From positions 2,124 through 66,123 of IMG/VR virus record IMGVR_UViG_3300010218_000003: a DNA stretch of 64,000 nt; one strand, given 5' to 3'. Below the pieces are notes generated by a model. It saw only the letters and a list, made by a program, of their open reading frames with translations. It was not told where the DNA came from and did not search any database. Made by a program: the position numbers and the translations under genes. This document shows, one piece after another, positions 8,372 to 50,858 of this stretch; positions within the stretch are counted from its first letter, which is position 1; the number at the start of each line of letters is the position of its first letter. Source of the stretch: a virus (taxonomy: Duplodnaviria; Heunggongvirae; Uroviricota; Caudoviricetes).

Positions 8372-8396
8372 ATTGTAATCATTGATGAGTTAAAAG

Positions 8397-8645: not shown

Positions 8646-8672
8646 TATCCTCCCGTCAAGGGGATTTTATTG

Positions 8673-8728: not shown

Positions 8729-8735
8729 TGATGGC

Positions 8736-8966
8736 TTAATTCAAATGGTCCTCTGTGATGGCTCCACCGACGTAAAGCTCATTATCTAGCCATCTGCTTA
8801 CGTCGGTGCCTGAACGAGCCATCAGAATTATAAGCCACCTAGGCTCTCGTTCGTTTGCCGCACATTCGGAGCAAACCACGAAATCCATATCTGGATTCAG
8901 CCGTGACTTGTAATTCACCAGTGAATTTCTCTGCTTGTCACAGATCTGACAAACCAGTTCGCTCAC
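8736..8966 (-). CDS. zinc-ribbon protein
   Basis: 76 aa; CQIC...CSEC. Confidence 0.45.
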   Translation of the reverse strand: MSELVCQICDKQRNSLVNYKSRLNPDMDFVVCSECAANEREPRWLIILMARSGTDVSRWLDNELYVGGAITEDHLN

Positions 8967-9101
8967 TCCTCTTCATATCCAATCTCTCCAATGACCTCAA
9001 GGTCATCGTTTTCGAAATACTCGTTGAACTCAATTCCGCCTACAGAATACTGAACCTTACACATATAGCTGTGTACCTCAGTGATTATTCCGTAGACACC
9101 T

Positions 9102-17231: not shown

Positions 17232-18122
17232 TCAGAAGTTTCCGGGTGCTACCTGGAAACAGTCTATGCCCATCGCACGCCACATGTCAACAACCTGCTG
17301 ACGATCATCGTACACAGCCACAACATCGTAGATGCCACGAATGTGCTCATCGAACAGCTCTTGCTTGACGATGGAATCCTTGCGCATGTCCCCCTCAGAA
17401 CGCATGTGCAATTCTGAGAAAGGAATGTCGTACAGCTCCAGCCAAGCGATTGTTTCATTACGACATGAGCCGTCTCGTCCGCTCATAACGATGATCTTGT
17501 ATCCTGCCTTCGCGTGAGCCTGGGCAGTCAGAACAACCTGTCGTCGCGGATCATCGTCGCCAACACCCTTCCAGTAGAAAGGATCACGCTCATTCATCTC
17601 AGCAAGGGTTCCGTCGATGTCAAAGAGGTAAACCTTCTCTGCACCTTCGGGACGCTCGTAAGGATGAACAGCCGTGACACTCGTGTGGAAATCAGTGAAG
17701 ATTCCACTAGACTTCATGGACTGATGCATCTTACGAATGACAGACTCAGGGACGTCTCGACCACCGAGCGCAGCACGCACAGTGTTTCGCTGAATTGCCG
17801 TCTCTAGAGAAACGTCAAACTGCTTAACTGAAACACTAGCTCCGTGACGCTGGCCGATCTTAACGAATTCCTTGATGTACTTGTGTCGGATGTTCGTGTC
17901 ATCTACGACCACGGAGTAGCCCTTTGACAGAGCGCCATCGACCATTCCGTGCTCAATTCGAGTAACAAGCTCCTCGTCTACTCCGGTCTCCCGGCCAAAG
18001 AGCTGCATACGAATGTCGTCACGATTGACTCGAACACCATTCGGGTTTTCCTTGAGCCAAACATCATGCGCCCAAGTGCTCTTACCACAACCGGGAATTC
18101 CCCGGAGAATCAGAAGCTGCAT
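17232..18122 (-). CDS. pnkp: polynucleotide 5'-kinase/3'-phosphatase (T4 Pnk-like)
   Basis: N-terminal P-loop GIPGCGKST; C-terminal HAD phosphatase DIDGTLAE. Confidence 0.85.
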   Translation of the reverse strand: MQLLILRGIPGCGKSTWAHDVWLKENPNGVRVNRDDIRMQLFGRETGVDEELVTRIEHGMVDGALSKGYSVVVDDTNIRHKYIKEFVKIGQRHGASVSVKQFDVSLETAIQRNTVRAALGGRDVPESVIRKMHQSMKSSGIFTDFHTSVTAVHPYERPEGAEKVYLFDIDGTLAEMNERDPFYWKGVGDDDPRRQVVLTAQAHAKAGYKIIVMSGRDGSCRNETIAWLELYDIPFSELHMRSEGDMRKDSIVKQELFDEHIRGIYDVVAVYDDRQQVVDMWRAMGIDCFQVAPGNF

Positions 18123-18670: not shown

Positions 18671-18944
18671 ATGCGGCCATATTGCCGATTAGGGTTTCTG
18701 TAGGATTGTTGTAGTGATTATACTTACGCCGGGCCGTTTCGATATCAGCAGCAAAACTCATGGCTCGATATCCATTGGCAGCGTTTGGAATTTCTTCCTT
18801 AGTCTCCTGAATCATTCGGAGACTTCTCTGTGCACGTTCAAGATCTTCTGTCATCATCAGGTACAGCCGGGCACGCTTCTTACAAAGGTGCCCGGCCAAT
18901 GACCTACGACGAGGATCTTTACGCCACTCCTCGTTAGCCTGCAT
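18651..18944 (-). CDS. hypothetical protein
   Basis: 97 aa. Confidence 0.45.
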   Translation of the reverse strand: MQANEEWRKDPRRRSLAGHLCKKRARLYLMMTEDLERAQRSLRMIQETKEEIPNAANGYRAMSFAADIETARRKYNHYNNPTETLIGNMAAFGEGAE

Positions 18945-20028
18945 TGGTAGGGTGTACGTCCTCTCGCTTGGCCTCCGGCTTGATCTGCTTCCAGATTAGC
19001 TCACTGATGCTGTCCCCGTCAAGCAGGTTGAACATGTGGCTTCTGTACAGATCGATTCGGTTTGCAGCCATAGCGAAGTCACGACGACCCTCACGAGTAG
19101 CAGGATCGAAGCCCTCGGGCATTGAAGAAAGAAGGTTGTGGAAGATCCCACGCACCTCAATCTCAATTCGCTCGTACTCCTCCAGAAGCTTCCCACCAAC
19201 ATCCTTCACAAAACTATGGAACTCGTCAGGCAGAGCCTCACAAATCTCCAAGATTGTGTAACCTTCGGTGAGCTGCTTCCATACAGAGCGCTCAGACAGC
19301 ATAGAGATCATGCGGTGCAGCTCGACGTAATCTGCCTGCTTGATCTTAACCATCTTGTTGCCAGATCGAACTACGAAACCCTCTGCGTTCTTACGGTACT
19401 GCGCGTGTGCAGCCTCACGCAATGACTTGTAATTGAAAACCTCCGTCACCGGCCCGTCCCAATTAACAATTGCCTGAGACTCCAGAGGGCCACAGACGTA
19501 CCCATGCTCCTTGTGAACTGCACCCAAGAGAATAAGGTCATCCATTGAACCGTAGTCCAGAACGATCCTGTTCTCAGGGTAAACAATCTCAAAGATGAAT
19601 GTGTAGTCTGAGACGAACTGAATGTGGCTGTAACGCTCGTTAAGAACACGAGTTGCGTGAATCGCCTGATCTGACATGAATGAACCGCGAGTCGCAATCG
19701 CCAACTGACCACCGTAGGAGTACAGGACTCCCATTGATCCATCCTTCTTGTCCGTAACCTCAACCGGAGCATCCCAGTCAAGCTGTGCAGACTGAGAGTC
19801 ACCCAAATTGAAGAACTTCATGAAAGGACGAGCAATCAGGTTGCCATCAAAGTCAACGATTGTACCGCGACAGTTAAGAGTGCACTCGTTCCACTTTCCA
19901 GCGAACTGAGTCTTCTCTGAGTAGTTAAGAATCTTTAGGGGCAGGACCGGATGAGTTTGCGCCCGGACATAGCCCTCTGAGATCATCTCGTCAAGAAGCT
20001 CCTGTGAGAAGATCTTGGTGAACTGCAT
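18934..20028 (-). CDS. RNA ligase, T4 Rnl1-like (tRNA repair)
   Basis: CRGTIVDFDG...ARPFMKFFNL and KKDGS motif I match T4 gp63/Rnl1 N-terminal region. Confidence 0.85.
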   Translation of the reverse strand: MQFTKIFSQELLDEMISEGYVRAQTHPVLPLKILNYSEKTQFAGKWNECTLNCRGTIVDFDGNLIARPFMKFFNLGDSQSAQLDWDAPVEVTDKKDGSMGVLYSYGGQLAIATRGSFMSDQAIHATRVLNERYSHIQFVSDYTFIFEIVYPENRIVLDYGSMDDLILLGAVHKEHGYVCGPLESQAIVNWDGPVTEVFNYKSLREAAHAQYRKNAEGFVVRSGNKMVKIKQADYVELHRMISMLSERSVWKQLTEGYTILEICEALPDEFHSFVKDVGGKLLEEYERIEIEVRGIFHNLLSSMPEGFDPATREGRRDFAMAANRIDLYRSHMFNLLDGDSISELIWKQIKPEAKREDVHPTNAG

Positions 20029-22251: not shown

Positions 22252-22328
22252 ATTTCAATCCTCCTGCCTCTGATGAATTAGGCAGTATCAGTATATCAGG
22301 AGGATTGTTATGAAGTCTAATTGACTTG

Positions 22329-22398
22329 CTGTCACAGTTGGATTCGAACCAACAACATCCTTGGCCTAGGATTGCTTTGCCAATTAAGCTACGTGACA
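22329..22398 (-). tRNA. tRNA-like with non-standard 6-nt anticodon loop (AGGCCA)
   Basis: acceptor TGTCACG/TGTGACA, D-arm GCTT/AAGC, perfect ATCCT/AGGAT stem, T-arm GTTGG-TTCGAAT-CCAAC. Confidence 0.5.
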
Positions 22399-27522: not shown

Positions 27523-27594
27523 TGCATGTAGGAGGATTCGAACCTCCGAGGTAGGGCTTTACAGGCCCGCCTAGCTTGTCCCTGGCTTACATGC
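27523..27594 (-). tRNA. tRNA-Tyr (anticodon GTA), short variable arm
   Basis: acceptor GCATGTA/TACATGC, loop CTGTAAA, T-arm GGAGG-TTCGAAT-CCTCC. Confidence 0.75.
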
Positions 27595-34956: not shown

Positions 34957-35060
34957 CCCGGGAAACACGGAATCGAACCGTTCCTGACTTATTCATTGTG
35001 GTCCCTGACGGTATCGCACCGACCTCTAAAGCTTTTCAGGCTATCGCTAATCTATCTCAG
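34957..35060 (-). ncRNA. unassigned structured element with tRNA T-arm (AACGG-TTCGATT-CCGTG) and long hairpins
   Basis: no foldable acceptor/D arms; lies in 1-kb noncoding tRNA region. Confidence 0.25.
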
Positions 35061-35209
35061 CTAAAGGACCAAGCACGGTTTAATTATGAGGAAAACCGTG
35101 AAAGACTCTCACCTTATTGGTAGACGGACCTAGCTAGGCACCTTTCCCGAATGCCCTTCGGGCCTGCGCAAGCCCTAGGGGACCTACATCGGATCGTCAT
35201 CTCAGGCTA

Positions 35210-35290
35210 GCGGAGCGACGGGATTCGAACCCGCAACTGCTACTCTGTTACCTACTAACAGCGTAAGTGCTGCTTTCGGCATTGCATTTC
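35210..35290 (-). ncRNA. tRNA-like element with aberrant body (6-bp CTGTTA/TAACAG hairpin, 5-nt loop)
   Basis: GCGGG-TTCGAAT-CCCGT T-arm and CGCTCCG 3' end, no 5' acceptor partner. Confidence 0.25.
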
Positions 35291-35371
35291 GCCGTTTGAC
35301 CTATTAAACTACACCCCTCATATCAGGAGCGACCTGATATGCATTTGACGGCATCGCGTTTACCATCAAAG

Positions 35372-39610: not shown

Positions 39611-41239
39611 TCAGATTCGACCTGCGGAGAAGTTGGCTAGGACACGTGGAGCGTTGCTATCAAAGCCAACGAAGTCCATCATTCCACTATCGCTTGGGTC
39701 AGCAATAGTGAATGGCGTTGAAGCGACTCCTAGAACAGCAAGTCGTGCATCAATACCCATGTCCTTACGGTACTTCTTTAGAGCCTGGAATGGGTGAATC
39801 TTGCCAGCCCACGTCTCGTTATCAGTGATAACGACGAAGGTGTCAACCTCAATTCCATTCTCAAGAGCCCACGTCATTGGCAGTGAGCAGTCTGTACCGC
39901 CCCAGTTTACTGAACGCATTGCACTCATTGCCTGAGCAAGAGAGCTGCGACCAGTAATCTTTAGTTCGGTCATACCGCTGTCACGCCAGTTGTACCCCAC
40001 GCTGGAGAAGCCGCGAAGAATGTGAGCTGGCTCTGTACGCGCAATGGTCATCGCCATAGCACCAGCAACTTGTGCACAGCTTAGGTCGAGACCCATAGCC
40101 ATAGCACTCATTGATCCGGAACAGTCGATGGCTAGCATCGTCCTCTTACCGGCTGGCTCAATGGTCTTGAATGACTTGTGGAACGCCTCATCGATTGCAT
40201 CGACAATAACGGCCTCAGTCTCCCAGTTCTTTACACGTCCGCCGTAGTAGTTCTTTCGATCCACCTGGCCTTCTGCGTAAACAACAGCAGCGTTGAGGAA
40301 GTTAATTGGGTGCAGTCGAGACTGACGAATCAACTGTTCATTCGTTAGCTGACCAGCGAAGCTTGCAGCAAACTGCATGTCCTTGAAAGCACCAATACGC
40401 GCGAGGCGAGTGATGTTTCGAACAGCAGCCTGACCACGAAGCTGACCATTAGCGAAGAGCCGCTTCCAGACACTAGCATCCGTGAGGAACTGTGTTGGAA
40501 TTGTCTCCCAAGAAAGCATCTCGTAATCCCGCAGAACTGCGTGAACAGCCTCTACGGACTCCGCCTTCTGCATAAGCTTGAAGCCCTCGATAACCCGAAG
40601 GTCATCTACAGCGTCATGCTCCTTGCCTAGGACGAAATCAGCAACAGACGTGTTAACGTTCTGTGGGTGAGCCTTTCGCATTACGTCTCGCAGCGTCCAG
40701 GTGTTTCCACCGAACTTACGTGAACGATACTTGACTGCCTGGTAAGCGAGCTTATCAGCGTCCTTATCGAACCAGCTAGCTACGATCTCACGCTTTGCGC
40801 GACCCCATCCGCCAAGCTCGTTAAGATAGTTAACTACCTCGTAGAGGTGAGTAGCAGTCCTAACGACCTTGTTGAATACAGCCTTGACCGCCTGCTTATC
40901 CTTGCCGTTGACAATGACAGAGGCTAGAGCGAACAGGGCTGGACTCTGCTTATACGCACGACCATTGACAGATACATCAACGATTGTGTTCAGTACAGAG
41001 GCTTCGTCACGAGCAATGAACTCATTGAGGAAGCTTACGTTGCTCTGGGTGTGGTTAACCTCAGATACGTAATACGTTCCTCCGTCAGTTCCCAGAATCA
41101 GGAAGCGCTCAAGGCGAGACTGATCAGAAACCTGGAAGACGAATCCACCAGCGTTGTTCTTGACCTGCCCGTCCTTAGCCTTCATGGACTGAGAAGTCTT
41201 GTTGGTTGCCTTTGCGGCATTAGTTAGTGCGTTGGACAT
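39611..41239 (-). CDS. rsr: Ro60/Rsr ortholog (TROVE domain + C-terminal vWA/MIDAS)
   Basis: 542 aa; N-terminal TROVE-like region; C-terminal DCSGSMS MIDAS, same TROVE+vWA architecture as Ro60. Confidence 0.75.
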   Translation of the reverse strand: MSNALTNAAKATNKTSQSMKAKDGQVKNNAGGFVFQVSDQSRLERFLILGTDGGTYYVSEVNHTQSNVSFLNEFIARDEASVLNTIVDVSVNGRAYKQSPALFALASVIVNGKDKQAVKAVFNKVVRTATHLYEVVNYLNELGGWGRAKREIVASWFDKDADKLAYQAVKYRSRKFGGNTWTLRDVMRKAHPQNVNTSVADFVLGKEHDAVDDLRVIEGFKLMQKAESVEAVHAVLRDYEMLSWETIPTQFLTDASVWKRLFANGQLRGQAAVRNITRLARIGAFKDMQFAASFAGQLTNEQLIRQSRLHPINFLNAAVVYAEGQVDRKNYYGGRVKNWETEAVIVDAIDEAFHKSFKTIEPAGKRTMLAIDCSGSMSAMAMGLDLSCAQVAGAMAMTIARTEPAHILRGFSSVGYNWRDSGMTELKITGRSSLAQAMSAMRSVNWGGTDCSLPMTWALENGIEVDTFVVITDNETWAGKIHPFQALKKYRKDMGIDARLAVLGVASTPFTIADPSDSGMMDFVGFDSNAPRVLANFSAGRI

Positions 41240-41639: not shown

Positions 41640-41712
41640 ATCGGGCAAGTTGGTAGGAATCGACCTTATATTTGCAGTGTAAGATAACCGATTCCATTCG
41701 GCCCGATATAAA
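41640..41712 (-). ncRNA. structured element A: nested stems ATCGGGC/GCCCGAT and GGAATCG/CGATTCC, 26-nt apical loop; carries GGGCCGAATGG...CGGTTATC core
   Basis: perfect 7-bp outer and inner stems on minus strand; member of 4-copy family. Confidence 0.35.
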
Positions 41713-41759
41713 GTTGTATGGGTAAGTTGTTGACATCGACCGTAAACCTAGCGCCAAAG

Positions 41760-41830
41760 CAATCCACGGATTCGAACCGTGTTTCGGTCTGTTTCATAGA
41801 CAGATAACCGATAGTCATTCGACCCAAAAG
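41760..41830 (-). ncRNA. tRNA-like element B: GGGTCGAATG core, D-loop-like CGGTTATC, GTCT-ATGAAAC-AGAC hairpin, perfect T-arm CACGG-TTCGAAT-CCGTG, no acceptor pairing
   Basis: immediately 3' of tRNA-Asp on minus strand. Confidence 0.35.
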
Positions 41831-41901
41831 TCCCGACGAAGGGAATCGAACCCTCGATAATACGCTGACAACGTATCGTGTTTCCATTACACTACGCCGG
41901 G
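41831..41901 (-). tRNA. tRNA-Asp (anticodon GTC)
   Basis: acceptor CCCGGCG/CGTCGGG, D GTGT/ACAC, perfect stem ATACG/CGTAT, loop TTGTCAG. Confidence 0.85.
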
Positions 41902-41920
41902 CTAGCCCCGAAGGGCAATA

Positions 41921-42145
41921 TTAGTTCTTGAGCTTCCTCTGAATTTCAGCCTCAGAAATAGGCTTTGAACTGCTCACTGAGAGCTTAGTGCCTCGCGGCA
42001 CGCCGTAATACTGAGACTTTGATTCGAATTCCTTCTTTGCAAACTTCTCTGCTGCTGAGGCGGAAGATGCAACATAAAGATTGGCGAACTCGTGTGTCTT
42101 GTTGCCGACCTTATATGATCCAAGAACCTCAAATGTCTTTGCCAT
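41921..42145 (-). CDS. hypothetical protein
   Basis: 74 aa. Confidence 0.45.
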   Translation of the reverse strand: MAKTFEVLGSYKVGNKTHEFANLYVASSASAAEKFAKKEFESKSQYYGVPRGTKLSVSSSKPISEAEIQRKLKN

Positions 42146-42375
42146 CAGGCTCCTTCTGTCGCCTTTAGATTACGAAGATTCTTATAACCGTCCTGCGGAC
42201 GCTCTCTGATCATTTCCTTGAAGAACTTGTAAGCCTGCCTCAAAGCATCAGCCTTATCCTTTGCAAGGAAGCTCATGTTGAAGTTCAGAACGACATACTT
42301 CTTGTTATTGCGAGCATCACGAGCATCGTACTTTCCCGTGACATTCCAATTGGGCTTCTTGCCAGCTAGAGACAT
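42145..42375 (-). CDS. hypothetical basic protein
   Basis: 76 aa. Confidence 0.45.
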   Translation of the reverse strand: MSLAGKKPNWNVTGKYDARDARNNKKYVVLNFNMSFLAKDKADALRQAYKFFKEMIRERPQDGYKNLRNLKATEGA

Positions 42376-42566
42376 TACTCTACCACGATCTCCATAAAGT
42401 CGGGACGAGCTAGTTCCTTTAGCTCAGCGGCAAATTCCTCAGACGCCAGTTCATGTGTCCAAACTGGACGACCAGCAAGCTCCTCAATATACTCATGCAT
42501 ATCTGAGAAGTCACCGACAAGGATTCCAGTAAACACTGCTACGATAGCAGCTTCGCGCTTGGTCAT
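42375..42566 (-). CDS. hypothetical protein
   Basis: 63 aa. Confidence 0.4.
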   Translation of the reverse strand: MTKREAAIVAVFTGILVGDFSDMHEYIEELAGRPVWTHELASEEFAAELKELARPDFMEIVVE

Positions 42567-42597
42567 TAAACCTCGCTATTATCTTGTTGTTTTGAAG

Positions 42598-42674
42598 CGA
42601 CCCCTACGGGAATCGAACCCGCCTGATGTCTGCCTTGACAGGGCAGTGACCACAACCTAGCAGTCCCAGAGGCC
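42598..42674 (-). tRNA. tRNA-Asp (anticodon GTC), second copy
   Basis: acceptor GGCCTCT/AGGGGTC (GU pairs), perfect stem CTGCC/GGCAG, loop CTGTCAA. Confidence 0.7.
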
Positions 42675-42739
42675 AAACGGTGGCGGGCCGATTCGGATTT
42701 TGTAACCCTTACGACTGACCACCTATAACTACAGTAGCA

Positions 42740-42904
42740 TCAAGGTGAGGGCTTGTCAAACGGCCCGTACTCTCGTACTTCACCGTCCTCGAACTCAACC
42801 GTTACACCTTCTGCAAATGCTTCACGGATCTTTTCTTGTTCTTCTTCCCACTGTGCCATACCCTTGTCAACCATGTCAAGGAAGGCACCAAAGCCAGTGA
42901 ACAT
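42740..42904 (-). CDS. hypothetical acidic protein (54 aa)
   Basis: manual ORF MFTGFGAFLDMVDKGMAQWEEEQEK... Confidence 0.35.
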   Translation of the reverse strand: MFTGFGAFLDMVDKGMAQWEEEQEKIREAFAEGVTVEFEDGEVREYGPFDKPSP

Positions 42905-42912
42905 CTTAATCC

Positions 42913-43164
42913 TTAAGATCCAACTGGTGCTGACTGATAGCCTGCCCAGTAATCGTCATCTTCTAGCCATACTACACGAGTGTTGCCGTTGTGTCCATGA
43001 ATCGCTTCCAGAGTCTCAATGTCTGGATACAAGGCGACTGATGTCCACTGAGACAACCATGACATGGCACACTGCCCGTTGTCAAATTCTACGCCCTGAG
43101 CGACGATGCCTGTACCGCTGACTCCTGATGAGTCGATGTCTCTATGTAGTTCGAACAGTCTCAT
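42913..43164 (-). CDS. hypothetical protein
   Basis: 83 aa. Confidence 0.5.
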   Translation of the reverse strand: MRLFELHRDIDSSGVSGTGIVAQGVEFDNGQCAMSWLSQWTSVALYPDIETLEAIHGHNGNTRVVWLEDDDYWAGYQSAPVGS

Positions 43165-43350
43165 ATATACTATCCTATATTATTATCTAGTATCGATTTC
43201 CAAACCGATTTCACTTACTCTTTTTCTTTTCTCTTCCCAGTATAATTTACCTTAACAGGTCTCTGTCGTTCTGTCAACTCCCTCCTTGTATCCTTTAGAT
43301 ATATGGAGAACCGCAAAGACGTAACCCCTCCGCACCGGGCCGCCGCGCCC

Positions 43351-43490
43351 GTGACAAATGAAAAAAGTGTCACGTGACAGAGTGACACCGTGACATTCTT
43401 CAATGCGTGACAACGTGACAGAGGCCGTGACAGAAGTGTCACTGTCACCATGACATGTCACCTCGATGTCATGACAGTCGTGACATGACA
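43351..43490. repeat. dense array of GTGACA/TGTCAC hexamers (at least 8 direct + 3 inverted in 140 bp), several at 8-bp spacing
   Basis: copies at 43351,43374,43382,43390,43407,43415,43427,43480 and inverted at 43437,43443,43456. Confidence 0.75.
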
Positions 43491-43500
43491 AAAGCCACCC

Positions 43501-43893
43501 TCAGATGTAGAGGATGGCTAGTGTATTGATAGCAATATGAATAGTGTTGTCAGCGATGATCATCAGCCACGTGGTAAGCCACACTGGTGCGTCATCTCTG
43601 TACCCCGTCTTGCTACCTTCGGCCCAGGAGTACCTAAACTCGCGCGGAGCCAATTGGTTTTTTGCCCAGACTACATGACGAGCCAGGCGATAATGGTCAA
43701 TTACGATATGCGTTCCGATGATGACTAGCAAGGCTAGCCATGACTGCGTGACAAAAAGAAATGGAGCACCATATGTCACTCCGTGAAGAATGGCCGGTGC
43801 CCATCTCTTTGTCTTCAATTGAGCCATCCAATCCGTCTGGATTAGATAGTCACCAACAAAGTGCAGTAGAACGCCGATGAGTACGGCATTCAC
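43501..43893 (-). CDS. integral membrane protein
   Basis: 130 aa, multiple TM. Confidence 0.55.
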   Translation of the reverse strand: MNAVLIGVLLHFVGDYLIQTDWMAQLKTKRWAPAILHGVTYGAPFLFVTQSWLALLVIIGTHIVIDHYRLARHVVWAKNQLAPREFRYSWAEGSKTGYRDDAPVWLTTWLMIIADNTIHIAINTLAILYI

Positions 43894-44078
43894 TTCTTCT
43901 TACGTCGTTCCTTTCCCTGCCATAGTTCAACCTGCTCCCAACGCTGAATGTCAGTCCAGCACTGGCACTTTCGAGGATTCTCGGTCTGACAGATTGAACA
44001 CCAGAACTCGATCTTGTTCTTTTCAAGGAACTCGATGAAGTCCTTCTTGTTATTTCCCTTTGGGAATTCCTTAGCCAT
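43890..44078 (-). CDS. zinc-binding protein
   Basis: 62 aa; CSIC...C.C. Confidence 0.45.
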   Translation of the reverse strand: MAKEFPKGNNKKDFIEFLEKNKIEFWCSICQTENPRKCQCWTDIQRWEQVELWQGKERRKKK

Positions 44079-44226
44079 TCCTGTCCTTTGGTGGAAGTGA
44101 TGGTAGAAACCTCTTGCAGTCGTAGCAATAGGCTCTGTTGAATCCGGCTGCTATAATCTCGTCTCCGTAGATCTTTCTTACATTGACGTGATAGCAGTCC
44201 TTCTGCTTCTTTCCTTTTCCTAGCAT
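44071..44226 (-). CDS. small Cys-rich protein (51 aa)
   Basis: manual ORF MLGKGKKQKDCYH...; ATGGCTAA coupling to downstream gene. Confidence 0.4.
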   Translation of the reverse strand: MLGKGKKQKDCYHVNVRKIYGDEIIAAGFNRAYCYDCKRFLPSLPPKDRNG

Positions 44227-44378
44227 ACTGCTCCTATGAAAAAGTCCGGCACATTACGCGCCGGACAATTGGTATGCAGGTGGCCCTACCTAAAAGGTTT
44301 TCTCAGCCATCGCCTAGGTTCAGTCTATATGGCCACTCAGACTCATCCATCATAAGCTATCGTTTCAAGACCTGCAAG

Positions 44379-44466
44379 CGGAGGCGGAGAGATTCGAACT
44401 CTCGCGGCGTATCCCTACACCGTAGGCCGTTCAAAGACCTTCCACACTGCCAACGTTAACGCCTCC
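44379..44466 (-). tRNA. tRNA-Ser (anticodon TGA), long variable arm
   Basis: acceptor GGAGGCG/CGCCTCC, loop TTTGAAC, T-arm GAGAG-TTCGAAT-CTCTC. Confidence 0.85.
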
Positions 44467-44475
44467 ATAAAGCTG

Positions 44476-44700
44476 TCAGCTATCACTGACAACTTCAAGA
44501 TCAGTTTCATTGAAGCCACCCATGACACCAAAGATCTTGTCATTGAGTGATCTGTCGAAGAACTTGATCTCATATTCTCCAGCACCAGCTATCTTGAGCA
44601 TTCTGCTGCGAAGATGAACGGTGCCTTCCTTCCCATAATACTCAGGAAGGATCTTTGGGTTTCCGTGCTTTACCTTTACCCTAGTTCCACACAGTATCAT
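44476..44700 (-). CDS. small KOW-like protein
   Basis: 74 aa; GTRVKVKHG...GKEGTV. Confidence 0.5.
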   Translation of the reverse strand: MILCGTRVKVKHGNPKILPEYYGKEGTVHLRSRMLKIAGAGEYEIKFFDRSLNDKIFGVMGGFNETDLEVVSDS

Positions 44701-44711
44701 TTTACCTCCAG

Positions 44712-44796
44712 CGGAGAGCCCCAGGATCGAACTGGGCCGGGCTGCAACACCCTTAGCGCCTTTCCAAGACGCCCGCTAACCAATCGCTTACTCTCC
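44712..44796 (-). tRNA. tRNA-Ser (anticodon GGA), long variable arm
   Basis: acceptor GGAGAGT/GCTCTCC, stem GCGTC/GGCGC, loop TTGGAAA, T-arm CCCAG-TTCGATC-CTGGG. Confidence 0.8.
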
Positions 44797-44824
44797 AATA
44801 GCCTGAGTGTATCAGGCCCCGTGC

Positions 44825-45004
44825 TTACTTGTCAAGCTTGATCTGCTTAAGAACGACAAGCATAACCTGTCCCTCCCAAGCGCCTTCCTTCATCAGAACC
44901 TTGACAAGAGTAGGATTAGTTCCGAGTTCCCAGATCTCACCCTTCTTCTTGTCAGAGCCAACAATGACCTTGGTGCCGACTTCCAGCTTATCCTTGTTGT
45001 CCAT
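44825..45004 (-). CDS. small KOW-like protein (59 aa)
   Basis: manual ORF MDNKDKLEVGTKVIVGSDKKKGEI... Confidence 0.45.
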   Translation of the reverse strand: MDNKDKLEVGTKVIVGSDKKKGEIWELGTNPTLVKVLMKEGAWEGQVMLVVLKQIKLDK

Positions 45005-45023
45005 TTTGCCTCCAAATAGGGAG

Positions 45024-45097
45024 TGCTCCCAGTCGGACTCGAACCGACACTTTAAACGGGTTTAAGCCGTTCGCCTCTGCCTTTGGGCCACAGGAGC
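45024..45097 (-). tRNA. tRNA with anticodon TAA (Leu codon UUA) but short variable arm (class I)
   Basis: acceptor GCTCCTG/TGGGAGC, perfect stem AACGG/CCGTT, loop CTTAAAC, T-arm GTCGG-TTCGAGT-CCGAC, A73. Confidence 0.7.
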
Positions 45098-45105
45098 TTA
45101 GGCCA

Positions 45106-45279
45106 TCAGGCCCTTTGAACCATTTCATCACTCACACCATACAGCGGTGTTCCTTCTCTTTCAAGGATGACAATCTTGTGATCGCCGCCCACAAGAGTAA
45201 CCTTGCCATACTTGTTCTTGTAGGAACCACGAGTAACCTTTACCCGAGTCCCCACGGGAAATAGCTTTGAAAGAGCCAT
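45106..45279 (-). CDS. small KOW-like protein (57 aa)
   Basis: manual ORF MALSKLFPVGTRVKVTRGSYKNKYGKVTLV... Confidence 0.45.
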   Translation of the reverse strand: MALSKLFPVGTRVKVTRGSYKNKYGKVTLVGGDHKIVILEREGTPLYGVSDEMVQRA

Positions 45280-45305
45280 TTCGATCCCTTCGGTTGATTA
45301 CAAAG

Positions 45306-45379
45306 TACGCCTGGCAGGATTTGAACCCGCTTTCTCCAGTTTATAAGACTGGCGCATCAACCACATATGCTACAGGCGC
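45306..45379 (-). tRNA. tRNA-Ile (anticodon TAT, AUA-reading)
   Basis: acceptor GCGCCTG/CAGGCGT, D GCAT/ATGC, perfect stem CCAGT/ACTGG, loop CTTATAA, T-loop TTCAAAT. Confidence 0.8.
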
Positions 45380-45427
45380 TCGGTCCGAAGACCTTTAGCT
45401 ACAGCTTACAACGTGTCAGTCTGTCTG

Positions 45428-45643
45428 TCAACCGCTGACGCTGTTGAAGATACTGACGATGGCGTCCCATGCACCGTTGAACAGGTTAAAAACGCTGTCT
45501 ACGGTTTGCGGGAATAGCTTGGCGACAATGAGTCCACCGAGAATTCCCCAAATTAGATCTGGCCACTGCCTACCCTTCTTCTTCACTAGATAGAGAGTGA
45601 CCAGAACCCAAAGGAACACCGGGCCAACCATCAACATTTCCAT
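45428..45643 (-). CDS. small membrane protein
   Basis: 71 aa. Confidence 0.45.
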   Translation of the reverse strand: MEMLMVGPVFLWVLVTLYLVKKKGRQWPDLIWGILGGLIVAKLFPQTVDSVFNLFNGAWDAIVSIFNSVSG

Positions 45644-47454
45644 TACTGCTCCAGTTGCTTCTCGATGTTCTTCCTAAAGTAACCGGCAACCTTGTACTTA
45701 GAGCCTTCCCATACTCGGCTCTCCCGACCGGTGTTACCTAGAATCTCATGTAGCTGACGAGCTGTCAAGATGTGTCCGTAGCCTCGGAGTTCCTTGGTCA
45801 AGATGCTAGCTGGCAGCCAGTCATGTTCATCAAAGTTCTCAAAGATGTCCAGAACGTCTTCGAGCAGTCTTCTGTCTGTTACATCTGTGACTGTTATATC
45901 TAGATAGGTATCCTTATCTAGTTCAACAATCCCTTCACCGGCTCGTTCATCACCGATTTCAATTGCCTCTTCTGGATCAATTGGGAATGCCTTGTATAGA
46001 TATGGCTCTCTTGAGCCACCACCCATAATGTAGCACTTACCTGCGTCCTCTGGATCTTCTCCAGATGCAGGGTGAAGCTTATCTGGCCTCCAGCCTTGGC
46101 TGAGCGCTCCCTCTCCAAATACCAAAGGAACGTCGGCGTGACGTGAGGCGAACATTACCTTAATTGATACGGCGTCTGCAATAGCTGCTCCAAGCTGATC
46201 CTTGGTTGCCTGCTGTGCAGCTAGAATGACTGTGATTGCTGACTTTCTACCATTACGGATGATGTCAACAGCCAACTCCTTGCACTTCTTGTTTAGCTGA
46301 ATGAACTCGTCAATGAAGATTACTAGCGCTGGATGCTCTCTGGTTGGCTGCCAGTTATCACCCATACGTAGCTTGGTTAGCTTCTTTGCACGAATCTTAG
46401 TGTACTCCAGAGCCTCGGTTAGCATTTCTTCAATTTCAGCTTCTGTTCTACCTCTACGTGCAACGGCATCACCAAATACTTCAAGACCATTTCCACCGGG
46501 ATCAATGTCCCAAGTTACACAGTCACGACAGCTAGTAGTGATGTCTGCTAGTGTTCTCATGAACATAGACTTACCACCACCAGGCGCGGCGATAATGACT
46601 GCGTGATTTCTCAATAGAGACATCTCAAGGAACTGTCCGTCCATTCGCTGAGCAACCCTGTACTTGTTCTTAATTGAACGAGAAAGAGGCTCTACTCTTC
46701 CCTGTCCAGTCATATCAGCAAATGGGTCAGACTGCATAAGACGAATGATTACTTCGGCTCTGAAACGAGTGGCTGCTACAAGCATTCCATCAGCAGGAAG
46801 TCTCATCAAAGTTTCCATATCCTTGGTCTTAGCCATTACATCATCAGGCGTTCCCTTACGAAGAATGACTGGGAATTCCCAACCCCAATTGTATCGAGTT
46901 GGTTCAAGGATAGTCCTCGGTGTGATTCCTTCTGCTAGCAATGCTCTGCGAAGACACTCTGTTGCTTCTTCTCTATTACGAGCATCAGCAATTGGGAATG
47001 GAGCCATAGCGTCCTCTTCCTGATCTTCTGCTTCCTCACCAAAGATGTAAGTCTTGTTAGTTACTCCTACTATGGCAAAGAGGATCAAGAGGCTTACTGC
47101 CACCGCGCCAAACGTCACGGCTCCGAATGAACTAGTGAGCCATGCTGTGACGGCTAGAGAGGCCGCTACGCAAATGAAGAATCTCTTCCTGCGTGGTTGT
47201 GCGTGCGTCTGTTGTTCCATTCGCAGCTTGCGAGCCTTCTCATGATTGCCTTCGTGTCGAGCCTTAGCAATCTCAATCTTATAGTCTGCAACAGTCAACC
47301 AGTCAACGAGATTCTTCATACTTAGGCGTGCCCCTCCTGAGACATGCTTAAGCGCTCCCTGACTGGAAAGCCTAAAAGACCTAGAGCTAAGCTCTAGGTC
47401 TGAGTCAGGGATTTTCACAAGTTCTTTTGAATGCTTCTTGTCGAAATCCACCAT
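45643..47454 (-). CDS. P-loop DNA-translocase-like ATPase (FtsK/HerA/TraG superfamily) with N-terminal TM segment
   Basis: Walker A AAPGGGKSMFMRT, Walker B VIFIDEF; 603 aa. Confidence 0.65.
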   Translation of the reverse strand: MVDFDKKHSKELVKIPDSDLELSSRSFRLSSQGALKHVSGGARLSMKNLVDWLTVADYKIEIAKARHEGNHEKARKLRMEQQTHAQPRRKRFFICVAASLAVTAWLTSSFGAVTFGAVAVSLLILFAIVGVTNKTYIFGEEAEDQEEDAMAPFPIADARNREEATECLRRALLAEGITPRTILEPTRYNWGWEFPVILRKGTPDDVMAKTKDMETLMRLPADGMLVAATRFRAEVIIRLMQSDPFADMTGQGRVEPLSRSIKNKYRVAQRMDGQFLEMSLLRNHAVIIAAPGGGKSMFMRTLADITTSCRDCVTWDIDPGGNGLEVFGDAVARRGRTEAEIEEMLTEALEYTKIRAKKLTKLRMGDNWQPTREHPALVIFIDEFIQLNKKCKELAVDIIRNGRKSAITVILAAQQATKDQLGAAIADAVSIKVMFASRHADVPLVFGEGALSQGWRPDKLHPASGEDPEDAGKCYIMGGGSREPYLYKAFPIDPEEAIEIGDERAGEGIVELDKDTYLDITVTDVTDRRLLEDVLDIFENFDEHDWLPASILTKELRGYGHILTARQLHEILGNTGRESRVWEGSKYKVAGYFRKNIEKQLEQ

Positions 47455-47493
47455 GATTTAGTTTTTCTGCTATTGTCTCTCCAAGGAGACCAG

Positions 47494-47570
47494 TTGGGAC
47501 GGTGGGAGTTGAACCCACATGTGACCACTTAACCTTTCAACTGTTTATCAGACAGAGGGTATACGCCCCA
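47494..47570 (-). ncRNA. D-arm-less tRNA-like element (anticodon-like loop CTGATAA = GAT, 20-nt extra region)
   Basis: acceptor TGGGGCG/CGTCCCA, T-arm GTGGG-TTCAACT-CCCAC; no D-arm. Confidence 0.3.
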
Positions 47571-47579
47571 GTGGTGGGA

Positions 47580-48101
47580 TCATATCCACCGGCCGACCTC
47601 ATCAATTAGAGCGTCGAACACGGCATCATACTTTCCCGCGTCTCCGACAGATGCATTGATAATGATCTTATCCATTGCATCCAATCGAGGATTGAACTTT
47701 CCAAACTCCAAAGTGTGACCAAGGTTCAGCAGCAATCGCACTGCGTGCTTCTTCTGCTTTACTCCATCACCCTTAGCGAAGTTAAGGGCAGTTCTTACGT
47801 ACACATCCTTCATCTTGGCGCGGTTCACTCGATATTGAGTCCGGAATTCGTGGATCTTATCGATCTCAGCGACCGGCGTCCATAGCGCTTCAAGTGCTTG
47901 AGGTACGCAATCATCAACCATCTTCATAAATGTTGACATATCAACCGTCGTCTTGTCAACACCATTCGCAATGGTTTGCTTAATGTTTCGCTTACGCTTC
48001 GTGCGATTGGTTGCAATTACTTCGTAAATGTCCTTATCGCTGCCTGCGTGAGCGAGGCCATACAGATGGCTTCCGTGGATAGTCCTAAGAAGTACCGTCA
48101 T
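47580..48101 (-). CDS. nucleotidyltransferase-fold (Pol beta-like NTase) protein
   Basis: hGSxxYGxxxxxSDxDh motif: IHGSHLYGLAHAGSDKDIY. Confidence 0.55.
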   Translation of the reverse strand: MTVLLRTIHGSHLYGLAHAGSDKDIYEVIATNRTKRKRNIKQTIANGVDKTTVDMSTFMKMVDDCVPQALEALWTPVAEIDKIHEFRTQYRVNRAKMKDVYVRTALNFAKGDGVKQKKHAVRLLLNLGHTLEFGKFNPRLDAMDKIIINASVGDAGKYDAVFDALIDEVGRWI

Positions 48102-48194
48102 AATAAGTCCTTTAGGTATAAGGCGGGAACGGAGAGTGTGTAGTCCTTAATGTCATCCTACCACACACAATCTAAGATGACTTGTATCTACCGA

Positions 48195-48262
48195 GCGAAC
48201 CCAGCGATAGGAATCGAACCTATTATCCATTGAGTGATAACCGTTACCCATTCGACCCAAAT
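48195..48262 (-). ncRNA. tRNA-like element C: GGGTCGAATG core, GGGT-AACGGTTA-TCAC D-arm-like, T-arm ATAGG-TTCGATT-CCTAT, no anticodon arm
   Basis: immediately 3' of tRNA-Pro on minus strand. Confidence 0.35.
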
Positions 48263-48264
48263 TG

Positions 48265-48339
48265 TCGGGATGACAGGATTCGAACCTGCGACTTCACCGC
48301 CCCAAACGGCGCGCTCTGACCAAGCTGAGCTACATCCCG
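48265..48339 (-). tRNA. tRNA-Pro (anticodon TGG)
   Basis: acceptor CGGGATG/CATCCCG, D GCTC/GAGC, loop TTTGGGG. Confidence 0.85.
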
Positions 48340-48362
48340 ATAGACTGCTTTTGCAGTCCGAG

Positions 48363-48434
48363 TCTGGCACCCCGGAATCGAACCGGGTTTCTTACGCTTC
48401 CAAAGCGAATGGATTACCATCTTCCCCGTGCCAG
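48363..48434 (-). tRNA. tRNA-Pro-like (anticodon TGG), second copy, weaker D/anticodon stems
   Basis: acceptor CTGGCAC/GTGCCAG, loop TTTGGAA, T-arm CCCGG-TTCGATT-CCGGG. Confidence 0.65.
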
Positions 48435-48657
48435 ATAGCAGCGTTGTCGCTGCGTTGTACTTAATACTAACAGACCCCGTAGCGTCTGTCAAGCTGAACC
48501 TTTTGGCCTTCTGCGACTAGGTGCACATCCCAATCCATCAAGATTCTTGTGCTTGTTGCAGACCATTACAGTCTTGTTGTAGTACCTAATTCGATGAATT
48601 GGCTTGTTGCTGCATCGCTGAAACCAGCAGGTATCTCCTGGTCCAGACAGCGCCATC

Positions 48658-49104
48658 TCAATCCTTAGATAGTCCCTTAAGCTCCGCTAGCCTGTTCTCA
48701 AGATCCTTGATAGTGGCTTGAAGCTCTGCCTTCTTCTGTGCTCTGTACTTCTCTTCTACAGTATCGTTGACTGGAAGCACTTTGTCAAGGTCTGGGATGT
48801 CGTAGACGATCTTACCTTGTACCTTGACAACCTTACCGTTTCTTACCCAAGCCTTCCACAGATCACCGGGCTCCTCGCCTTCTCCACTTAGCGCAAAGAG
48901 GACGTTCGGCCAATCCTTTGACAGACTTGCCATGTCGCTTTCCCAGTCGTACCACTTCATCGTATCATAGTTGCCGTTGAGCAGTCTAGACAGATTCAGA
49001 TCGTAGCTTCCAGGGATGGTGACAGTATCAGCAGCGTTGATGAGATCCTTAGCTCTTTCACTGTCTCTTATGATCTCTAATTCAAATCGAGTGTAGTATC
49101 CCAT
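48658..49104 (-). CDS. hypothetical protein (start trimmed to MGYYTRF)
   Basis: ORF 48658..49170 trimmed to avoid HNH gene. Confidence 0.45.
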   Translation of the reverse strand: MGYYTRFELEIIRDSERAKDLINAADTVTIPGSYDLNLSRLLNGNYDTMKWYDWESDMASLSKDWPNVLFALSGEGEEPGDLWKAWVRNGKVVKVQGKIVYDIPDLDKVLPVNDTVEEKYRAQKKAELQATIKDLENRLAELKGLSKD

Positions 49105-49111
49105 ATTGCTC

Positions 49112-49498
49112 CTAAACTTCCTCAGCAAACTCACTCGGGAAGAGGAAGTATGCTTCCTTATAGTACCCAAATTGAGCAGACGTTCTCTTTGCGTGACAAT
49201 TGGCGCATAGAACTCTACACTTCTCTATCTCTTCTTTGATTCTTTCAATGGAGAGTCCGTCAGCAACCAGTCTGTTGATGTTTGCAGACTTGTCACTGGG
49301 ATCGAGATGATCAAATTCTAGGCATCTAATGTCTCCCTCGCCACATGGGCAAGAGTTATTTCTTAGATATCTAACTATAAAAAGTTGATTCCTGGCTACT
49401 CGCTGCATCTTTGAAGCAGCATACTTAGCTTTGTTGGCTTCGTAATACTTCTTCTTTGCAGCCTTAGCTCTTTCGTCATTTGGATCTGTATATGCCAT
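49112..49498 (-). CDS. HNH endonuclease
   Basis: CPCGE...EFDH...N...CANCH. Confidence 0.8.
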   Translation of the reverse strand: MAYTDPNDERAKAAKKKYYEANKAKYAASKMQRVARNQLFIVRYLRNNSCPCGEGDIRCLEFDHLDPSDKSANINRLVADGLSIERIKEEIEKCRVLCANCHAKRTSAQFGYYKEAYFLFPSEFAEEV

Positions 49499-49553
49499 AT
49501 GGCAATTGTAAAGGGATACAAACCTTATGTCAAGTTTTGTATCCCTTTATGAG

Positions 49554-49624
49554 CATGTCCTGTAGGAGTTGAACCCACGCTTGAAGGGTTGGAGCCTTCC
49601 GTGCTACCGTAACACTTAGGACAT
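49554..49624 (-). tRNA. tRNA-Trp (anticodon CCA)
   Basis: acceptor ATGTCCT/AGGACAT, D GTGT/GCAC, loop CTCCAAC, T-loop TTCAACT. Confidence 0.8.
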
Positions 49625-49855
49625 ATAGTTGCTTGGGCGTGACCCCTTTGAATTCAAACAATGGACGGCGTAAGCGCCTAACCCAGGGAGATCCATTGTT
49701 CTATTCTGGCCTGCAACTAGGCCACAAATTGTCGGTCCGAGGAGGTTTTACCCATCGCTTCCCGCATATTTCCCTTCGCCATTCCTCACTTTTACCATGG
49801 TTATTATGTGAGTTCCGGTTCCGTTATATCCGCCGATATCGTAAAGTCGGACCAG

Positions 49856-49927
49856 CTCCCCAACCTAGATTCGAACTAGGAATTACAGATTCAGAGTCTG
49901 TTGTGTTGCCAGTTACACCAAAGGGGA
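49856..49927 (-). tRNA. tRNA-Gln (anticodon CTG), acceptor with two U-U mismatches
   Basis: D GTGT/ACAC perfect, stem ACAGA/TCTGT perfect, loop CTCTGAA, T-arm CCTAG-TTCGAAT-CTAGG. Confidence 0.6.
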
Positions 49928-50059
49928 ATGTGTTACCCTGCCAGTTAAAGAGCCTGGCGCTCTCATAACATATCCGGGTCAGATACCGAGATGCATTCTA
50001 GACTACATCTCGCCGGTAGCATATCACAAAAGATGACAGAGGCGAATCCGGGTCTTTGG

Positions 50060-50130
50060 AGCGGATGAGGAGAATCGAACTCCCGTCGTCTGCTTGGAAG
50101 GCAGGGGTTTTACCATTAAACTACATCCGC
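50060..50130 (-). tRNA. tRNA-Gly (anticodon TCC)
   Basis: acceptor GCGGATG/CATCCGC, D GTTT/AAAC, loop CTTCCAA. Confidence 0.85.
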
Positions 50131-50140
50131 ATATGTGGAT

Positions 50141-50225
50141 AAGTGTTGGGAGTCGGGTGGCCAATTTAATGACCTTTCTATTTCCAATGTAAGATAACCG
50201 ACCGAGCCCTTCGACCCACATTTAC
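50141..50225 (-). ncRNA. element D of GGGTCGAA(G/T)G...CGGTTATC family (degenerate T-arm)
   Basis: immediately 5' of tRNA-Gly on minus strand; shares core with A, B, C. Confidence 0.3.
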
Positions 50226-50237
50226 TACTTTAGCAGC

Positions 50238-50858
50238 TTAGTCTTCGTCTGTCAAGCCAGAGGCTGTTGCCCTGTCCTGATCAGTAAATTCTGCTGCCTT
50301 ACCCTCACGGTAGTTGGTGACGTACATGTCCATGGTAGCACCCATGCCACGCACACCAGCAGGACTAGCCGCAAAGGTCAAACTTGAAGCTGTTGGAATA
50401 CCCATCTGAGCACCAGTTGCAATTGCATCCTGGTTAGCGGCAAGGAAGATGAACTCGTAGCCCAACTCCCTTGACTCGCTAATCAGCTTGTTAACTGTAT
50501 CTAGCTTCCACTCCTGAGAGACATTCTCAAGACCATCGGTGAGAATAACGACGAGTCGCTTATCCACCGGCATATGATCCATCGTCTGCCTGAATTCTGT
50601 CACAGACTTGCCGATTGCGTCAAGCAGTGCAGTCATTCCGCGAGGAACAATCTTAATCTCAGGAGCGTTTTCTAGAGCAACTGGACCAAATAGGTCTTCT
50701 ACTTCACCATCGAACTGAACGACCTTGATTCCACATCGTCCCTCAACAGCCTTCTGCTTGTCAAGGAAGTCATTCAGCGCTTGCTCCGCTTCCATCTGGA
50801 TACTAGACATGCTACCAGATCGATCAACGATGAGCAACATTGCTGTAGTAGTAGACAT
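50238..50858 (-). CDS. von Willebrand factor A (vWA) domain protein
   Basis: MIDAS DRSGSM; 206 aa. Confidence 0.75.
   Translation of the reverse strand: MSTTTAMLLIVDRSGSMSSIQMEAEQALNDFLDKQKAVEGRCGIKVVQFDGEVEDLFGPVALENAPEIKIVPRGMTALLDAIGKSVTEFRQTMDHMPVDKRLVVILTDGLENVSQEWKLDTVNKLISESRELGYEFIFLAANQDAIATGAQMGIPTASSLTFAASPAGVRGMGATMDMYVTNYREGKAAEFTDQDRATASGLTDED

Follow-up and report, generated by a model that had tools for sequence, protein, structure and literature searches.

The 64,000-nt stretch of DNA analyzed here (the window; positions 2,124 to 66,123 of the IMG/VR virus record IMGVR_UViG_3300010218_000003) belongs to a cluster-BE-like Streptomyces phage: by megablast its 41-51 kb region is ~92% identical to phage Karimac and its relatives, and a megablast of the collection finds this region in common among 115 Streptomyces phage records. 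ARAGORN predicts 41 tRNA genes and a transfer-messenger RNA (tmRNA) in the window, all on the minus strand, with Rfam in agreement. On the same strand lie rsr, which codes for a Ro60 ortholog, and, upstream of it, four copies (A-D) of a short core that an earlier note, made from the letters alone, had described as a family fused to tRNA genes. These elements are very probably genes for a set of four paralogous Y RNAs (Yrl RNAs) that partner the Ro60/Rsr encoded by the phage itself, because their motifs, their covarying fold, their co-occurrence and shared strand with rsr, and the presence of a Ro60 ortholog all agree. The locus comprises the following features:

39611..41239, minus strand: rsr, coding for a 542-aa Ro60 ortholog, the presumed protein partner (Pfam, structure matches, Karimac annotation)
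41640..41707, minus strand: predicted Y RNA A, 68 nt, minimal type (covariance model R1, minimum free energy fold, sub-threshold Rfam match)
41717..41828, minus strand: predicted Y RNA B, 112 nt, with a tRNA-like T-arm (covariance model R1, ortholog covariation)
41830..41901, minus strand: tRNA-Asp(GTC), directly upstream of Y RNA B (ARAGORN, Rfam)
47580..48101, minus strand: small RlaP-like nucleotidyltransferase of an 'RNA repair pathway' family, directly downstream of C, given for context only (Pfam PF10127)
48111..48261, minus strand: predicted Y RNA C, 151 nt, the most YrlA-like (covariance model R1, ortholog pairing)
48264..48339, minus strand: tRNA-Pro(TGG), directly upstream of Y RNA C (ARAGORN, Rfam)
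48464..48492, minus strand: promoter-like TTGACA-17-TAGTAT (TG), upstream of tRNA-Pro-tRNA-Pro-Y RNA C (consensus match only)
50057..50130, minus strand: tRNA-Gly(TCC), directly downstream of Y RNA D (ARAGORN, Rfam)
50134..50220, minus strand: predicted Y RNA D, 87 nt, a minimal form that has a second small hairpin (covariance model R1, minimum free energy fold)
50227..50255, minus strand: promoter-like TTGACA-17-TAAAGT with an extended -10 TG, its -10 hexamer ending 6 nt before the first base of D

The product of rsr, which lies 400 nt downstream of copy A, matches the Pfam families TROVE (3.5e-34) and vWA_Ro60 (3.2e-60), as well as the structures of Deinococcus radiodurans Rsr (2NVO; E 3.8e-101) and vertebrate Ro60 (1YVP; E 1.9e-84 to about 1e-85), and is a complete Ro60 ortholog with both the TROVE and the Ro60-vWA domains present. 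In Karimac, the one close relative in which annotation was compared, a gene annotated as 'Ro-like RNA binding protein' comes right after elements B and A on their downstream side; the counterpart region in this phage has annotated tRNAs and small open reading frames (ORFs), and all four element positions fall in unannotated gaps.

The sequence CGGTTATC occurs six times in the window against 0.86 expected (0/100 shuffles reach six), and four of the six sites lie 5-8 nt downstream of GGGYCGAAKG (41704, 41825, 48258, and 50217). These four are confined to the minus strand, i.e., the gene-coding strand, and the scan with the two half-motifs thus bears out the claim of four copies at these places in a single orientation. 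A candidate fifth copy at 43616-43625 lies inside an ORF, without UUAUC and without a covariance model match, and was set aside as a chance near-match to the first half-motif. The four copies share a fold that comprises a 7-bp lower stem, CGAA(N) opposite a ACCAACUU-like run, an upper stem of ~9 bp, UUAUC, and a copy-specific apical domain. The lower stem joins the 7 nt preceding CGAA to the last 7 nt of each element: AUCGGGC/GCCCGAU (A), UUUGGGU/ACCCAUA (B), UUUGGGU/ACCUAAA (C), and UGUGGGU/AUCCACA (D). The upper stem is built by the 7-12 nt that separate CGAA(N) from UUAUC and by the stretch just upstream of the ACCAACUU-like run. UUAUC itself is exact in A-D and in the majority of the seed relatives, with UUACC in a few. 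The core is the 5' strand of a stem-bulge-stem and not a tRNA D-arm. The alternative local, D-arm-like helix (YCGA with the YCGG before UUAUC) pairs in 85% of alignment cells only since both of its sides are conserved; it shows zero compensatory changes and does no better than shuffles, and the long-range upper stem is therefore preferred. The likeness that the earlier note had drawn between the family's D-arm-like part and two CAT tRNAs (AACGG(C)TATCAC) is short and holds for copy C only, not for A, B, or D. Likewise, it is true that no copy forms an acceptor stem, yet a 7-bp terminal stem with distal sequence is present in each. The placement of B and C stood, whereas their lengths proved too short: the core finds its pairing partners, the 3' strands, beyond the ends given there, so that B reaches 41717 and C reaches 48111.

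The fold was evaluated in a sample of 39 Rsr-encoding viral contigs (L002-L040) with 10-kb flanks. In a structure-blind MAFFT alignment (A1) of 19 short members from 12 sources, 90.5% of the cells are paired for the 16-pair structure, as against 31-50% when the partners are slid by 1-3 columns, and changes on both sides are seen at 13 of the 16 pairs; a few rows (L026d, L031b) were misaligned by MAFFT, which slightly lowers these counts. Initial descriptor scans, which gave wrong 3' partners for B and noisy matches, were replaced by a covariance model (R1) built from A1, with B and C outside the seed. Run over the whole window with filters off, R1 returns exactly four matches, all on the minus strand and identical to A, B, C, and D, the next match being a trivial hairpin (13.9 bits, E 0.56). 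A second alignment (A2) of 104 relatives has 90% of cells paired against 34-47% in slid controls, with compensatory changes at 16/16 pairs; both alignments back the fold. Among phages whose Rsr identity ranges from 98% to 35%, the core stays conserved and the flanks and apical parts vary.

Copies A and D are the compact forms. In A, the lower stem (41707-41701/41646-41640) is followed by CGAA (41700-41697), the upper stem (41695-41688/41663-41656), UUAUC (41687-41683), and a 3' loop UACCAACUU (41655-41647), with CUUUUC coming next after the element; R1 scores it at 76.1 bits (E 3e-15), and the minimum free energy fold gives the same stems (z -2.7). In D, the lower stem (50220-50214/50140-50134), CGAA (50213-50210), upper stem (50209-50198/50156-50148), and UUAUC (50197-50193) are again recovered by both R1 (65.3 bits, E 9e-13) and the minimum free energy fold. 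The 'degenerate T-arms' ascribed to these two copies dissolve on this analysis: that of A (GGUCGAUUCC) is really the 3' strand of the upper stem, and that of D is an unrelated small hairpin. A and D have a near-identical loop start (UUAUCUUACAYUGSAAAUA), and A-type copies are confined to the closest relatives of the window phage, which suggests a recent duplication.

Copies B and C are longer and do contain the perfect T-arms noticed earlier (CACGG-UUCGAAU-CCGUG at 41781-41765; AUAGG-UUCGAUU-CCUAU at 48223-48207). B (R1 48.9 bits, E 5e-9) has its lower stem at 41828-41822/41723-41717, CGAA at 41821-41818, UUAUC at 41807-41803, and the 3' strand of the upper stem at 41739-41732; its apical domain is made of a small UCUGU/ACAGA stem-loop, the T-arm, which shows compensatory changes at 3/5 pairs across 11 orthologs, and a short 3-bp hairpin in whose loop a GG never varies. 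Its lower stem reads TGAGGGT/ATCCTCA in one ortholog (L003) against TTTGGGT/ACCCATA in the window. C (R1 26.7 bits, E 6e-4, filters off) has its lower stem at 48261-48255/48117-48111, CGAA at 48254-48251, the upper stem at 48249-48241/48132-48125, and UUAUC at 48240-48236, which can pair with GAUAA; across 10 orthologs, 97% of cells are paired as against 35-52% with slid partners. Its T-arm, which corresponds to positions 47-63 of the tRNA model, is followed by a variable hairpin and then by a conserved block ending in UGGUAG, for which two overlapping helices are possible, each with 1-2 compensatory pairs, and the block may form either helix or a pseudoknot, the data not choosing between them. 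Across the family, a T-arm-like hairpin is present in 46 of 93 distinct sequences, all of them ≥100 nt, the rest being mostly minimal forms of 61-90 nt, and most genomes carry both classes.

The family tracks rsr. Over the window and the 39 viral loci, R1 gives 104 matches at E≤0.1, with viral matches in 29 of the 39 loci; all 104 lie on the strand of rsr, and nearly all lie upstream of it, including tandem copies in loci where no tRNA is nearby (L026, L031, L035). A scan of viral contigs with the bare motif, which on its own yields mostly chance matches and is informative only after the covariance model filter, separated the first 80 loci into 13 model-positive and 67 model-negative ones, and Rsr is encoded within the stretch examined in 11/13 of the former versus 0/67 of the latter. 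Further R1 matches are a tandem set of three RNAs immediately before Ro in ScottMcG, a Bxz1-type mycobacteriophage, seven elements in Gordonia phage Forza, and elements upstream of rsr in bacterial metagenome-assembled genomes of other phyla; therefore, the family is that of bacterial and phage Y RNAs in general, and not one special to the window phage. The R1 scan of the Karimac record outside the span of the window found no further copy, and the number is therefore four per genome. The earlier suggestion of a Y-RNA-like partner for Rsr is thus supported, with the difference that each copy is a whole Y RNA and not a module of a larger RNA.

Two observations in other phages extend the family. 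In Forza (L042), four R1 matches lie at 8351-8982 inside a tRNA array downstream of Ro, one of them directly after the tmRNA, and the match at 8497-8621 overlaps a feature annotated as a 68-nt tRNA-Gln (8498-8565); this annotation is probably mistaken, the feature being a tRNA-like Y RNA. More distant relatives, with Rsr 77-79% identical, have a fifth Y RNA type of 145 nt, with a T-arm and starting 1 nt after tRNA-Ile, that has no counterpart in the window:

L006 4439-4583; L010 6224-6368; L037 4187-4331; L038 4377-4521: fifth Y RNA type

The conserved positions are those known from characterized Y RNAs. GNCGAAN0-1G near the 5' end is the Rsr-recognition motif of bacterial Y RNAs, related to the GGUCCGA strand contacted by Ro60, and YrlA has a conserved YUAY after the stem (PMC4201824). 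The GYCGAA(N)G of the copies fits the former, being present at positions 5-12 of each RNA as GCCGAAUG (A), GUCGAAUG (B, C), and GUCGAAGG (D), and UUAU fits the latter. With the YrlA/YrlB systems (PMC4201824), the window further shares location upstream of rsr on the same strand and the presence of several RNAs per locus, which in those systems are processed from a common precursor; their two-class pattern is mirrored by the long T-arm forms B and C and the short forms A and D. Unlike YrlA/YrlB, the window has four copies, two of them 7-9 kb from rsr inside tRNA arrays, and a Streptomyces host. In contrast to YrlA, A and D have neither the T stem-loop nor any other tRNA-like domain; where an acceptor-like hairpin and D stem-loop follow the T-arm in that RNA (order V-T-AS-D), C has its variable hairpin and the conserved block with two overlapping helices, and B has only the 3-bp hairpin, with no clear acceptor-like or D arm. 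The 2014 screen kept neither candidates >4 kb away from rsr nor any that overlapped annotated tRNA genes in tandem (PMC4201824), and C and D would therefore have been missed by position, and A and D by their lack of T and D arms.

Among phage systems, Yrl1/Yrl2 of Thermus phage phiLo, which were found by way of a CGAA bulge in a stem-bulge-stem and were shown to bind the phage Ro60 and to form a ternary complex that includes the host PNPase (PMC12135203), resemble the window RNAs in being phage-encoded, upstream of the phage Ro60, and endowed with the CGAA bulge, as judged from their published description; phiLo differs in having two RNAs to the window's four and no described embedding in a tRNA array. 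D. radiodurans Yrn1/Yrn2 (RYPER; PMC4201824) share the conserved nucleotides of the Ro-binding stem and have a hairpin resembling a T-arm, but their tRNA-like parts are arranged differently, and their locus is chromosomal and induced by stress; in the functional model of RYPER the Y RNA gates Rsr and tethers it to the exonuclease PNPase (PMC4201824). Copy A is in turn like the metazoan Y RNAs and stem-bulge RNAs (sbRNAs), in that its stem-bulge-stem is formed from both ends and that the columns of the 5' GG(N)CCGA/GGGYCGAA, the 3' (C)AACUUG(A)CC, and UUAUC, a sequence described at the loop start of animal Y RNAs and sbRNAs (PMC4726728), align. In a short-segment Rfam search it scores 33.9 bits against nematode sbRNA, the Y RNA homologs of worms (RF01656; gathering score 38), and 19.2 bits against Y_RNA (RF00019; threshold 38), aligning end to end and in register (5' GGNCCGA, UUAUC, 3' CAACUUG.CC). 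It differs from the animal RNAs in staying below gathering and in having no Pol III context, as do its siblings B and C in having tRNA-like modules, and the animal/phage likeness may reflect either common descent or convergence on the same Ro60 surface.

Several points weigh against the identification of the four elements as Y RNAs. All four copies stay below the gathering score of every Rfam family: the search of the whole window at gathering thresholds and of the 10-kb region at E≤10 gave nothing for the four, B, C, and D had no match in the short-segment search with RF00019 and RF01656 (C and D alone gave noise), and Rfam on seven distant loci found only tRNA and tmRNA. Single-sequence folds of B and C are not more stable than shuffles (z -0.8 and 0.0), and such folding misfolds both by pairing the core to the T-loop, so that comparative data are required. 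The aligned sequences are related and A2 is fitted to the model, both of which tilt its counts in favor of the structure; A1, which lacks the model-fitting bias, agrees with it. The model does not cover all phage Rsr systems, since 10 of the 39 Rsr loci, in most of which Rsr is 37-39% identical, have no R1 match. While A and B lie 0.4-0.6 kb upstream of rsr, C (6.9 kb) and D (8.9 kb) are beyond the 4-kb rule of the published screen (PMC4201824), a screening rule and not a biological definition. Finally, Rsr binding and the processing route are both steps that we infer.

One alternative, which is very unlikely, holds that these are Y-like RNAs working without Rsr, e.g., as tRNA-mimic decoys for host tRNA-targeting nucleases or tRNA-modifying enzymes, with the Ro-type stem serving only for stability. 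T-arm mimicry in B and C, the embedding in tRNA arrays near RNA-repair genes, and the Ro60-independence of some animal Y RNA functions (PMC4726728) speak for such a role, but A and D keep the Ro-type stem without any tRNA-like module, and the co-occurrence and co-orientation with rsr are strict.

The neighborhood of the tRNAs raises a second possibility, namely that the elements are spacers or processing signals of polycistronic tRNA transcripts, guiding RNase P, RNase Z, or RNase E and unrelated to Rsr. The junctions with tRNAs are indeed tight and conserved. As the earlier note had it, B and C adjoin tRNA 3' ends and D sits just 5' of tRNA-Gly: B and C start 2-3 nt past the discriminator+C of tRNA-Asp and tRNA-Pro, respectively (2 nt for B, which ends 9 nt before A; 3 nt past the discriminator for C), and the end of D precedes tRNA-Gly by 3 nt in the window and by 3-5 nt among its orthologs in 10 loci. 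Of the 109 copies counted over all loci, 86 have a tRNA at ≤10 nt or a further Y RNA at ≤25 nt, and in 12 representative loci 28 of 49 copies lie ≤10 nt from a tRNA end, compared with an expectation of 2.4 and no more than 8 in any of 2000 random placements. Nevertheless, there are four elements to 41-42 tRNA genes, and most junctions in the window are without one; the family follows rsr and not tRNAs, as seen in the tRNA-free loci and the bacterial genomes mentioned above and in the split between model-positive and model-negative contigs; and its conserved motifs are the known Ro60-binding ones (PMC4201824). We therefore regard a processing role of this kind as very unlikely.

That the copies are functionless pseudogenes, i.e., tRNA paralogs duplicated within the arrays and decayed, would agree with their position among the 41-42 tRNA genes, the intact T-arms of B and C, the tRNA-Gln annotation of the Forza member, and a terminal stem of acceptor-stem length. 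B and C share with tRNA (RF00005) the sequence and structure of the T-arm, the neighborhood, and probably the processing enzymes, but they have no cloverleaf, no acceptor stem with an aminoacylatable 3' end, and no anticodon arm supported by covariation. ARAGORN makes no call on any of the four, and the Rfam tRNA model misses them even at E≤10, except for a hit to the bare T-arm of C (12.3 bits); the core pairs distally, compensatory changes maintain this non-tRNA fold while the D-arm-like helix is devoid of them, the core persists over the entire range of Rsr divergence as flanks and apical parts change, and copies also occur where there are no tRNAs. This origin is thus extremely improbable: rather than tRNAs in decay, the four copies add new members to an RNA class that is already known. 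A DNA-level signal repeated four times (a promoter, operator, or homing-endonuclease site), for which a short conserved sequence, variable internal spacing, and intergenic location might argue, has next to no likelihood given the single strand of all 104 matches, the compensatory changes with distant partners that point to selection on RNA, and the location of the promoter-like hexamers outside the elements.

For the Y RNAs, the tight tRNA junctions suggest a route of biogenesis, and we therefore infer release by tRNA-processing enzymes. The simplest reading is that the Y RNAs would be co-transcribed with the neighboring tRNAs from host-type promoters and the polycistronic transcripts cut by RNase P and the tRNA 3'-end nuclease: RNase P cleavage at the 5' end of tRNA-Gly would create the 3' end of D, cleavage at the 3' ends of tRNA-Asp and tRNA-Pro would create the 5' ends of B and C, and B and A would be separated within their 9-nt spacer. 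The promoter-like site before D keeps both hexamers and their spacing in 8 orthologous loci while the spacer varies, although its -35 overlaps an ORF end and part of this conservation may be coding. Given the 6 nt between this site and its first base, D may start a primary transcript D-tRNA-Gly-tRNA-Gln-tRNA-Trp.

Several side observations concern the tRNA genes and the surrounding intergenic DNA. A C directly follows the discriminator in 38/38 Rfam-called tRNA genes, while the full CCA is encoded in only 2/38, which fits endonucleolytic 3' cleavage followed by CCA addition; the tRNAs, which thus appear to carry C74 only, hint at a particular 3'-end cleavage or repair route. ARAGORN reports at 22328-22398 (minus strand) a tRNA with a two-base 'anticodon' (gc), which scores 43.7 bits with Rfam and whose Karimac homolog is annotated as tRNA-OTHER, and the tRNA model exceeds its threshold without an ARAGORN call at 27523-27594, 34999-35070, and 35210-35318 (minus strand), one of the three being 109 nt long and possibly holding an insertion. 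Between the nucleotidyltransferase and FtsK-like genes, a tRNA-like element at 47494-47570 (minus strand) is barely over threshold (RF00005, 30.3 bits), with a nearly missing D-arm, a long variable arm, and the anticodon GAU; it has no ARAGORN call and is unannotated in Karimac. At 43400-43500 (minus strand), the intergenic DNA downstream of a terminator-like hairpin is dense in direct and inverted TGTCAC/GTGACA-type repeats that could be a protein-binding array.

The rsr strand also encodes an RNA-repair set (17232-18122, 18934-20028, and 47580-48101, all minus strand), namely Pnkp with kinase and phosphatase domains, an Rnl1-type RNA ligase (PF09511), and the RlaP-like nucleotidyltransferase; the match of the last to PF10127 is at 23.4 bits (cut-off 23), and its homologs in relatives are annotated as nucleotidyltransferase or tRNA nucleotidyltransferase. 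These genes recall the known bacterial rsr-yrlBA-rtcBA RNA-repair operon. The Y RNAs of Deinococcus, Salmonella, and phiLo bind Ro60 by the stem, gate its cavity, and tether it to PNPase (PMC4201824, PMC12135203). By analogy with such systems, the four RNAs would serve the phage Rsr as adaptors while it surveys or repairs RNA in the infected cell. Rsr would bind the GGGYCGAA strand of the lower stem and the bulge, as does Ro60 in animals and Deinococcus, and the four apical domains would act as gates or tethers coupling it to different partners, e.g., host PNPase or tRNA-handling enzymes; this coupling would support RNA quality control or repair in infection alongside the phage tRNAs, tmRNA, RNA ligase, Pnkp, and nucleotidyltransferase.

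A bolder pair of proposals, which taken together we consider doubtful, goes further. The first is that the Y RNAs stand within the tRNA transcription units because they are part of a module for maintenance of the translation apparatus that would comprise the 41-42 tRNAs, the tmRNA, Rsr, the four Y RNA adaptors, the Rnl1-type RNA ligase, Pnkp, and the RlaP-like nucleotidyltransferase, with the apical domains steering Rsr and a host exonuclease to different damaged or misprocessed tRNAs and thereby countering host anticodon nucleases; if true, this module would be a phage analogue of the bacterial rsr-yrlBA-rtcBA operon. The second, separate proposal is that all Y RNAs are one ancient family, as the column-for-column match of GGNCGA, UUAUC, and ACCAACUUG.CC between the phage RNAs and nematode sbRNA may indicate, which would contradict the statement denying homology between bacterial and animal Y RNAs.

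Phage Y RNAs are already known from mycobacteriophages (PMC4201824) and Thermus phage phiLo (PMC12135203) and have also been proposed for a Listeria phage; a literature search found no description of Y RNAs in Streptomyces phages. The added interest of the present set lies in the systematic embedding of Y RNAs in tRNA arrays and in minimal forms that resemble animal Y RNAs and sbRNAs in sequence, UUAUC included. The Ro60-Y RNA systems of actinophages would possess more Y RNAs, located farther from rsr, than the published screen could see, among them minimal forms without tRNA mimicry, and the tRNA junctions offer a testable biogenesis route by way of RNase P and the processing of tRNA 3' ends. 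Tractable genetics make Streptomyces with its lytic phages a suitable system for the study of Ro60-Y RNA particles during infection, near RNA-repair genes, and the resemblance to the animal RNAs sharpens the evolutionary question of whether UUAUC and the 3' AACUUG strand may be universal Ro60-related elements.

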